64,000 nucleotides of DNA from Escherichia coli (GTDB taxonomy: Bacteria; Pseudomonadota; Gammaproteobacteria; Enterobacterales; Enterobacteriaceae), in NCBI RefSeq assembly GCF_044647545.1, contig NZ_CP172818.1; one strand, written 5' to 3'. Shown piece by piece: positions 23,427 to 24,865 of this stretch; position 1 is the first letter of the stretch, and every line of letters begins with the position of its first letter. The notes under the pieces are model-generated. The model was not told the DNA's origin, searched no databases, and worked only from the letters and a program-made list of their open reading frames with translations. Both the position numbers and the translations under genes were made by a program.

Positions 23427-24284
23427 TTATACAAGGGGACTATTCTCCACGGGATCATCCTTAGTGGAAGGATCATCAAAGTCATCATCCATAAATAAAA
23501 TATCATCGAATGGTGCCACGCCCGTGATGAGTTTTATTTTTTTATTACGATCAGACAAGACTCCACTTAAACCGTTTTCGCTGACGCGTTCTAATGATTT
23601 TTCATAACTCTCATTGTTAGCAGGCGTATTAAAAATACACGGAGTATCAACATCAAACAATGACGTCCCCCAGTTCACATATTTAATATCATAGTTACTG
23701 AAGTTCTGTCCAGAAAAGAAGCACCCCTTAAAGTCCAATCCACCTAAATTGTATAAACAACCCTCTTCTTTTGGGAGAGTAATTTTAATTCTGGCTATCT
23801 CCCAGACAAAATTGCCATTTTTGTATTTGAATACCGTTTCAAGATCTCCTCCAGACAGCTTGACTTCTGGAAATAATTTGAAATTAAACCCTACATTATT
23901 ATGTGTCAACGTAGATGAACAAAAGATGGAAAAAGCTTGCAGTGCTGAATTATAGCTATCGATTTTATCTTGAGGCTGCGCTCTTGGTAAAAACTTATAG
24001 CAACACTCATAAAAATTAAGTAGAAACTCTGATGACCTTCCATTTTTATCAAATAATACCCGCTGAAAATGCTGCACAAACTTATTCGTTTTTTCTTGAA
24101 TATCTACGGTGTGTTCCTTTGACTCTGACAAAGATGGAGCCTGTTGAAGTGCATTGCTCATCTGGTTAATGAACATGTGCATTTCTTTAAATTTATCTCC
24201 ATAGTGACCTTTAACTTGCTGCGAGTTTTTAGCTACAGGTGAAATCTTATCTATTTGGTTGTCATATAAATTATGTGATTCCAT
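23427..24284 (-). CDS. AT-rich hypothetical protein, 285 aa
   Basis: 285-aa ORF in AT-rich DNA next to ileY; may be the downstream part of a disrupted gene continuing from 24365-24865. Confidence 0.5.
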   Translation of the reverse strand: MESHNLYDNQIDKISPVAKNSQQVKGHYGDKFKEMHMFINQMSNALQQAPSLSESKEHTVDIQEKTNKFVQHFQRVLFDKNGRSSEFLLNFYECCYKFLPRAQPQDKIDSYNSALQAFSIFCSSTLTHNNVGFNFKLFPEVKLSGGDLETVFKYKNGNFVWEIARIKITLPKEEGCLYNLGGLDFKGCFFSGQNFSNYDIKYVNWGTSLFDVDTPCIFNTPANNESYEKSLERVSENGLSGVLSDRNKKIKLITGVAPFDDILFMDDDFDDPSTKDDPVENSPLV

Positions 24285-24364
24285 ACAGTCATTTGGCGGC
24301 GTTTCTGAAATAACACTACGTGTTCTACCTGGCTGAAGTGAAGCAACATGAAAATCACTTTTTA

Positions 24365-24865
24365 TTATATTATCGAAAAGGGCCTGTTCATTTTTTTAGC
24401 GGATTGAACATACTGATCAATATTATTTTCTCTCGATAATTTGTTATTTTCAGAAAACACATTTTCTTTAATCTCCGGTTTTAATTTAATGAGAAGATTT
24501 TCCCACTCCTGCTTGCTTAAACATACTACGTCAGGCTCACCATCAGTAACTAACTCTTCATTATTATCAAAGTGTACGTTGAATACTTTTAAGTTATTTT
24601 CATCAACATCATATTTAATACGTTTTAATTGTTCTCCAGCTCCCATAATGACAAAGGCGTTGCCTTCTTGATATATACATTCAGACATTATTTTTTGTAA
24701 AGTTTCAAGAGCACCGCGATACATCCCTGAGGCAGCTTCCTTACAAATTAAATTTATAATACTATAAGCTAGTAGCTCCATGGGGTTGGAAGAATTGTTT
24801 TCATTACAACTTCCACTACCCAAAACTGTATTAACGTTATGACCATTACTTTTACTAACTAACAT
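24365..24865 (-). CDS. AT-rich hypothetical protein, 166 aa
   Basis: 166-aa ORF on the same strand 80 bp upstream of the 285-aa ORF; combined 451 aa, possibly one split gene (ypjC-like, from memory). Confidence 0.45.
   Translation of the reverse strand: MLVSKSNGHNVNTVLGSGSCNENNSSNPMELLAYSIINLICKEAASGMYRGALETLQKIMSECIYQEGNAFVIMGAGEQLKRIKYDVDENNLKVFNVHFDNNEELVTDGEPDVVCLSKQEWENLLIKLKPEIKENVFSENNKLSRENNIDQYVQSAKKMNRPFSII

Follow-up and report, generated by a model that had tools for sequence, protein, structure and literature searches.

The ypjC and ypjB genes of E. coli K-12

The closest described counterpart of the locus analysed here is the ypjC (b2650) and ypjB (b2649) pair of Escherichia coli K-12, which is now merged into a single pseudogene, ypjCB, and whose break directly follows DUF5507, separating a piece of ~160 aa from a C-terminal one. 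The gene order in K-12 is ypjA - pinH remnant - ypjB - ypjC - ileY - ygaQ, and the spacer between ileY and ypjC contains a mapped sigma-70 promoter with H-NS binding (PMC3946193). Deletion of ypjC in K-12 led to more pathogen colonisation of a commensal biofilm, and constitutive expression was without significant effect (PMC3646849); no other hint of a function came to light. Pseudogenes and contingency loci that arise by frameshift in homopolymer tracts are comparable in another respect, since in them a 1-base change in a coding mononucleotide run truncates the product.

We analysed 64,000 nucleotides of an E. coli chromosome (NZ_CP172818.1, assembly GCF_044647545.1), hereafter the window, in which a member of this gene family lies at the corresponding locus, has the same neighbours in the same order and is likewise split directly after DUF5507. 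Two ORFs of the window, ORF1 and ORF2, are equivalent to the K-12 "ypjC" and "ypjB", respectively. The K-12 allele, however, shares only ~90% nucleotide identity with that of the window and was disrupted independently, by a CAG to TAG change at codon 161 together with a 105-bp in-frame deletion, whereas the window retains these 105 bp. The first-pass annotation of the window had tentatively likened the ORF pair to ypjC as a split gene; the kinship and the split in K-12 hold, but the lesion is a different one. The product in the window is truncated by a 1-base change in a coding run, as in contingency loci, but the tract, at 7-8 A's, is short and of recent origin via a point substitution, gives no sign of reversible switching and has its A7 form fixed in one clone.

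Two ORFs from one coding region

ORF listing and translation place ORF1 (166 aa, the N-terminal fragment) at 24365..24865 and ORF2 (285 aa, the C-terminal fragment, comprising DUF5508 and an acidic tail) at 23427..24284, both on the minus strand and separated by 80 nt (24285-24364). The GC content is 0.33-0.37 over 23200-25200 versus 0.50-0.55 in the flanking core DNA. The first-pass annotation had described two same-strand ORFs of these lengths, 80 bp apart in AT-rich DNA between an invertase remnant and ileY. The ORF listing and GC content agree with this description, as does the RefSeq annotation of identical genomes, which places a recombinase-family pseudogene fragment at 22900-23067 and the tRNA-Ile gene ileY at 25622-25697, both on the minus strand.

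The suggestion that the two ORFs may be one disrupted gene was borne out. In genomes that are 100% identical to the window, 23427-24865 on the minus strand is annotated by RefSeq/PGAP as one frameshifted pseudogene, with the product name "ypjCB: YpjCB family protein" or "DUF5507 domain-containing protein"; in sibling strains the ORF is unbroken. This stretch is the whole disrupted ypjCB coding region, the intact form of which has 1440 nt and encodes 479 aa. The 1,701 nt around ypjCB showed 100% identity to at least 30 complete genomes, and its neighbours in identical genomes are ypjA (an autotransporter gene), the recombinase fragment, tRNA-Ile, an alpha-amylase-like gene and glaH. The position of ypjCB between the pinH recombinase remnant and ileY, near ypjA, is common to K-12 and the 100%-identical genomes, and a K-12 gene list agrees with this order (PMC10652928).

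Family models support the same assignment. ORF1 matched Pfam DUF5507 (PF17612) over residues 1-158 with 273.9 bits (E 4.8e-82), and ORF2 matched DUF5508 (PF17621) over residues 40-285 with 470.6 bits (E 1.5e-141), the gathering threshold of each family being 27 bits. In the intact allele DUF5507 precedes DUF5508 in N-to-C order. On the single NCBIfam model NF050179 (Ecoli_YpjCB; 465 positions, curated cut-off 650 bits), ORF1 covered positions 1-160 with 305.3 bits and ORF2 positions 195-460 with 548.1 bits, and an intact allele with eight A's at the lesion site (A8) covered positions 1-460 with 930.7 bits, above the cut-off. Each ORF alone stays under 650 bits, as expected of fragments. Because both halves match curated models, and do so consecutively on one NCBIfam model, a chance juxtaposition of the two ORFs is excluded. 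We are highly confident that ORF1 and ORF2 are the N- and C-terminal parts of one gene, ypjCB, that was broken by a deletion reducing a run of eight A's to seven (A8 to A7).

Some features of the surrounding DNA were observed alongside. The tRNA at 25622-25697 (minus strand) was called "Met (CAT)" by ARAGORN and tRNA-Ile (ileY) by RefSeq; this mismatch reflects the well-known reading of CAU anticodons as Ile after lysidine modification and is no sequence discrepancy. The ygaQ-like gene of the alpha-amylase family at 26254-28506 (plus strand) is an intact 750-aa ORF in the window, is a pseudogene with an internal stop in K-12 and is frameshifted in CLSC36, a member of the clone of the window; it is a second variably decayed gene within the AT-rich island of ypjCB. 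Between ypjA and the recombinase remnant, at 22557-22676 (minus strand), all inspected genomes have a 39-aa "hypothetical protein" (WP_001120794.1), and at this spot strain 2013C-4282 is annotated with a frameshifted "ATPase" fragment. A repeat, tandem-repeat and Rfam search of 22500-26400 returned chance-level repeats and the tRNA only.

A single-base deletion in a run of A's

Pairwise and multiple alignments located the lesion in a run of seven A's at 24391..24397 on the minus strand (T7 on the plus strand), where a 1-nt deletion changed A8 to A7 in codons 157-159, upstream of the ORF1 stop. Strain WB61 has an uninterrupted ORF of 1,440 nt that encodes a protein of 479 aa (WP_077516582.1), and the only difference between WB61 and the window across the entire gene is one base, with AAAAAAAA in WB61 versus AAAAAAA in the window. 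Four further A8 genomes from unrelated sources, namely Egyptian cheese, New York urine, a Cuban pig and Ecuadorian faeces, gave the same result; all five A8 strains (WB61, CFSAN061771, M160133, PD23 and 23CRST026) are identical to the window ypjCB at 1439/1440 nt and encode WP_077516582.1.

The consequences for the reading frame can be read directly from the sequence. Translation of the window runs through ...S-A-K-K into the out-of-frame residues MNRPFSII and ends at a premature TAA in the shifted frame (24365..24367, minus strand), 8 codons past the frameshift. ORF1 is made up of 158 native residues, which include the whole DUF5507 domain, followed by these 8 out-of-frame residues and the stop. 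The downstream frame is open from 24395, reads KNEQALFDNII... as in the intact protein and has its first ATG at 24284, which accounts for the apparent 80-nt gap in the ORF list. The stretch that codes for the linker, K158-C194 of the intact protein (24285..24395, minus strand), matches the intact WB61 protein in its frame-2 translation and falls outside both listed ORFs, as the first ATG of ORF2 comes only after it. The intact length is accordingly 158 residues plus 36 linker codons plus 285 codons, or 479 aa, and not the ~451 aa expected from joining the two ORFs, as the 36 codons between the frameshift and the ORF2 ATG had been left out. The proposal to resequence 24280-24370 likewise missed the lesion, which lies outside that interval at 24391-24397, and resequencing is unnecessary since the A7 allele is common to 62 independent complete assemblies.

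More distant alleles have AAAAGAAA, AAGAGAAA or AAGAGAGA at the lesion site, the first of these in CS6L, 2016C-3878, K-12, M18 and O157. In all aligned alleles that are neither A7 nor A8 the run is interrupted by a G, and the YpjCB family alignment shows Arg158 to be almost invariant. The likely course of events is that a G-to-A substitution (AGA Arg158 to AAA Lys) converted AAAAGAAA into a run of eight A's, from which one A was then lost at 24391-24397. The comparison of alleles makes this order of the two mutations the likely one, and in light of what is generally known about homopolymers the A was most probably lost by replication slippage.

Expression signals of the two halves

A Shine-Dalgarno (SD) sequence, GAGGA, is present 7 nt before the ORF1 ATG (24873..24877, minus strand); its duplex with the 16S 3' end has an energy of -6.1 kcal/mol, a value within the best 9% when random 22-mers are drawn from the window. 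The same anti-SD duplex analysis found no SD for ORF2 (+0.2 kcal/mol, versus -6.1 for ORF1). Upstream of ypjCB, the sequence that most resembles a sigma-70 promoter is TTGTCT-16-TATAAT at 24922..24949 (minus strand), which is a consensus match only (10/12), and the ypjCB region has no more such matches than expected by chance.

A ribosome that starts at the native ATG (24865, SD GAGGA) would leave the frame after Lys158 and terminate 8 codons later, and the predicted product of the window allele is an 18.7-kDa protein with a complete DUF5507 domain. The deletion would leave 321 codons out of frame, 36 of the linker and the 285 of ORF2, and these codons, which have no ribosome-binding site, are most probably untranslated. 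We infer that the function of YpjCB has been lost in the clade of the window. Since deletion of ypjC in K-12 has a biofilm-colonisation phenotype, the N-terminal fragment may keep some activity, and the term "pseudogene" may overstate the loss.

The A7 allele marks one clone

Among 5,426 complete genomes, 62 contain an exact match to the A7 81-mer and 20 contain one to the A8 82-mer. To relate these alleles to the chromosomal background we used the 25-kb flank at 29001-54000, with which exactly 63 genomes share at least 99% identity. The 60 best flank matches include all 30 of the A7 genomes listed and none of the 20 A8 genomes. A7 is a marker of one clone, which includes a strain named "ST648", and represents a single event: the deletion arose once and is fixed in this clone.

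The A8 strains that encode the intact protein WP_077516582.1 differ from the window in having other chromosomal backgrounds, with less than 99% identity in the adjacent 25 kb. WB61 resembles the window closely at the locus itself, being virtually identical over the surrounding 4.7 kb (21800-26400), yet falls below 99% in the adjacent 25 kb. From this local identity next to a divergent flank, the ypjA-ypjCB-ileY segment seems to have been exchanged between backgrounds by recombination. The divergence between alleles is mosaic and also affects the 5' (passenger) part of ypjA, where identity drops to 82-88% at about 22000-22400. These patterns suggest that ypjA-ypjCB-ileY may be a hypervariable segment under recombinational exchange.

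A further difference was noticed within the flank. At 40387-40395 the window has 9 nt in place of a 1,875-bp ygaM-nrdH segment that is found in all 60 closest genomes and carries a gene for a MocR/PdxR-like PLP-dependent regulator and a gene of the carboxymuconolactone-decarboxylase family. Directly downstream there is an A5 versus A4 difference; the 60 closest genomes are otherwise 100% identical. On account of these two differences the window strain is a member of the clone or a recombinant that is not identical to any complete RefSeq genome compared.

Alternative explanations for the split coding region

The distribution of A7 bears on two explanations at once. A homopolymer miscall in the window would be conceivable because homopolymer indels are a common assembly error, and the K-12-type allele of strain G5 has four such-looking 1-nt deletions; the exact A7 81-mer, however, recurs across 62 complete assemblies that many laboratories produced independently and that belong to one clone. 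As A7 is confined to one clone, an assembly artefact is ruled out, and we regard the chance of one as practically nil. The same confinement disfavours reversible switching, in which the A7/A8 tract would act as a contingency locus that turns ypjCB on and off. The coexistence of 62 A7 and 20 A8 genomes with otherwise identical gene sequences is what phase variation would predict, but A7 coincides with one clone as defined by the flanking 25 kb, and this clone contains no A8 genome. Moreover, for a species with proficient mismatch repair this tract is short, and the run is recent and derived from a point substitution, so that phase variation is in our judgement very unlikely.

Recoding would also reconcile the shifted frame with a functional gene. 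In E. coli, runs of A's are established to favour slippage of ribosomes and of RNA polymerase, and A7 might thus serve as a slippery site that yields, besides the short form, a useful proportion of YpjCB at full length. If the tRNA-Lys in the P site slipped by -1 on the second AAA, exactly the intact ...AKKNEQ... would be restored, and low-level restoration of the frame on A7 through slippage of RNA polymerase or tRNA-Lys is possible. Several features of the locus speak against this. The shifted arrangement is not conserved, as A8, found in the closest relatives, keeps the reading frame, and all other alleles are in frame at this site with a G-interrupted, non-slippery AAAAGAAA or AAGAGAAA. 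The heptamer in the zero frame, T AAA AAA, is not the canonical X XXY YYZ, no AGGAGG-like or SD-like stimulator is present in the 20 nt upstream of the run, and the 91 nt downstream have a minimum free energy of -9.6 kcal/mol versus a shuffle mean of -12.8 (z = +1.26), i.e. they are less stable than shuffled sequences. Efficient transcriptional slippage needs roughly 9 or more A's, a length that seven A's do not reach. Productive recoding at this site is highly improbable. Finally, the two ORFs could be separate functional cistrons, one ypjC-like (166 aa) and one ypjB-like (285 aa), given that ypjC and ypjB were historically annotated as separate genes in K-12, that Pfam separates DUF5507 from DUF5508 and that the K-12 ypjC deletion showed a phenotype. 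Against this, nine sampled lineages have an uninterrupted ORF of 449-492 aa, a single NCBIfam model covers both halves, ORF2 lacks an SD, and the 36 linker codons share the ORF2 frame and encode the same residues as in the intact protein. Homologues in the form of two independent genes would have contradicted the first-pass annotation; protein homologue searches found no taxon in which the halves are separate conserved genes, and alleles with one ORF were found instead. We give two independent genes virtually no credence, and a single ypjCB gene disrupted by the A8 to A7 deletion is the explanation adopted here.

Repeated inactivation of ypjCB in E. coli

Of 5,426 complete genomes, 3,078 have the ypjCB locus, with mosaic alleles that diverge by ~10% in nucleotides and ~20% in amino acids, and about half of the sampled alleles are intact. 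Intact ORFs of 449-492 aa were found in WB61-type strains, 3CM, O157:H7 3384, B25FEP, PK8261, CRE389 and 3426, 15.TR.026 and HH107. The lesions of other alleles are diverse: a TAG at codon 119 (TAG119) in CS6L and 2016C-3878, TAG161 in K-12, 55989, NWU_1 and G5, a common 1-nt deletion at nt 609 in M18 and ARS-C301, a 1-nt deletion at nt 1429 in 2013C-4282, an IS1 insertion in USMARC-51688 and an IS5-associated deletion in NCTC10444. The exact K-12-type TAG161 81-mer is found in 1,225 genomes, so that a dead copy of ypjCB is present in at least ~42% of the locus-bearing genomes. Among five intact alleles dN/dS was 0.40-0.76 with dN of ~0.1, indicating that ypjCB evolves fast under weak constraint. 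Weak constraint and repeated inactivation together suggest that YpjCB may be a dispensable accessory factor.

Truncations that appeared to cluster at the DUF5507 boundary had raised the possibility of selection to keep the N-terminal domain alone. This idea was dropped after a larger sample was examined; the nearby deletion of M18 is secondary to its older deletion at nt 609, and for this reason only two of five first lesions lie close together.

Three further observations concern individual alleles. The 105-bp in-frame deletion (alignment columns 627-731), which removes 35 aa from the linker and the N-terminal region of DUF5508, is shared by K-12, M18 and O157:H7 and is absent from the window, and the segment seems dispensable because the O157:H7 allele without it is still an intact ORF of 449 aa. 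The four extra 1-nt deletions of G5 (nt 170, 421, 454 and 504), of which one or more lie in a run of A's, have the look of assembly errors at homopolymers and not of real mutations; they call for caution with counts of "frameshifted" annotations. A 130-aa fragment of K-12-type ypjCB with the 35-aa deletion is located between IS1 copies at 4968-5360 of NZ_MN732922.1, a 245-kb conjugative IncHI2 plasmid. A plasmid-borne paralogue of ypjCB was rejected, as this single real plasmid match is an IS1-flanked piece of chromosome captured by IS1.

The YpjCB protein

Intact YpjCB (479 aa, 54 kDa, pI 5.1) is soluble and hydrophilic, has an acidic C-terminal tail and no transmembrane segment, and contains 6 Ser, 7 Asn and no Asp among its first 30 residues. 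A HMMER scan of 1.84 billion representatives for distant homologues returned one full-length cluster and fragments only, and the best 120 matches of a search of 5.8 billion proteins carry Escherichia or Shigella names only. The family is thus restricted to Escherichia and Shigella. An alignment with intact homologues from other Enterobacteriaceae had been recommended; intact alleles were available within E. coli, but other genera of the family yielded none.

Sequence and profile searches of the PDB with YpjCB returned no match. AlphaFold2 (AF2) modelled the full protein with a mean pLDDT of 35.7 and its C-terminal 218 aa with a pLDDT of 51 and a pTM of 0.52, and a Foldseek search of this weak model against the PDB gave no hit at E <= 0.001 and TM scores of at most 0.19, so that YpjCB could be assigned to no fold. 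Residues ~372-405 resemble 5-6 units of the A(D/N)LXX type. An assignment to the pentapeptide repeats (PF00805) was rejected with 12.3 bits (E 0.13) against a threshold of 20.2 and no confident beta-helix in AF2. Full-length YpjCB belongs to the PHROGs family phrog_30093 ("unknown function"), and PADLOC and named-family searches gave no match. A phage origin was rejected because phage records are without ypjCB despite phrog_30093, and a defence role because PADLOC was negative. A search of the literature library on DUF5507, DUF5508 and YpjCB found no papers.

Discussion

A different view of the gene would be that YpjCB is an Escherichia-specific accessory factor, possibly secreted and effector-like, of which DUF5507 is kept active and the C-terminal domain is repeatedly discarded. 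The Ser/Asn-rich, acid-free N-terminus, a possible short pentapeptide-like repeat, the acidic tail, the AT-rich H-NS-bound island, the lineage-specific decay and the intactness of the gene in O157:H7 prompted this idea, and the K-12 ypjC biofilm phenotype hints that DUF5507 could still be active. The N-terminal composition is only suggestive of a T3SS effector, and there is no homology to any named family. We consider an effector-like role of this kind improbable; if it were true, the R158K change that made A8 would be an incipient mutational switch.

The ypjCB of the window is an ordinary lineage-specific frameshifted pseudogene that is already present in public annotation, and its importance beyond correct annotation is little. 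ORF1 and ORF2 should not be annotated as separate genes, their product is best labelled a frameshifted ypjCB pseudogene, and the A7 allele could act as a simple marker of its clone. The locus is also a tidy case in which a point substitution makes a mutable homopolymer and slippage then strikes, and it illustrates how a fast-evolving orphan gene can decay repeatedly and independently inside one species.
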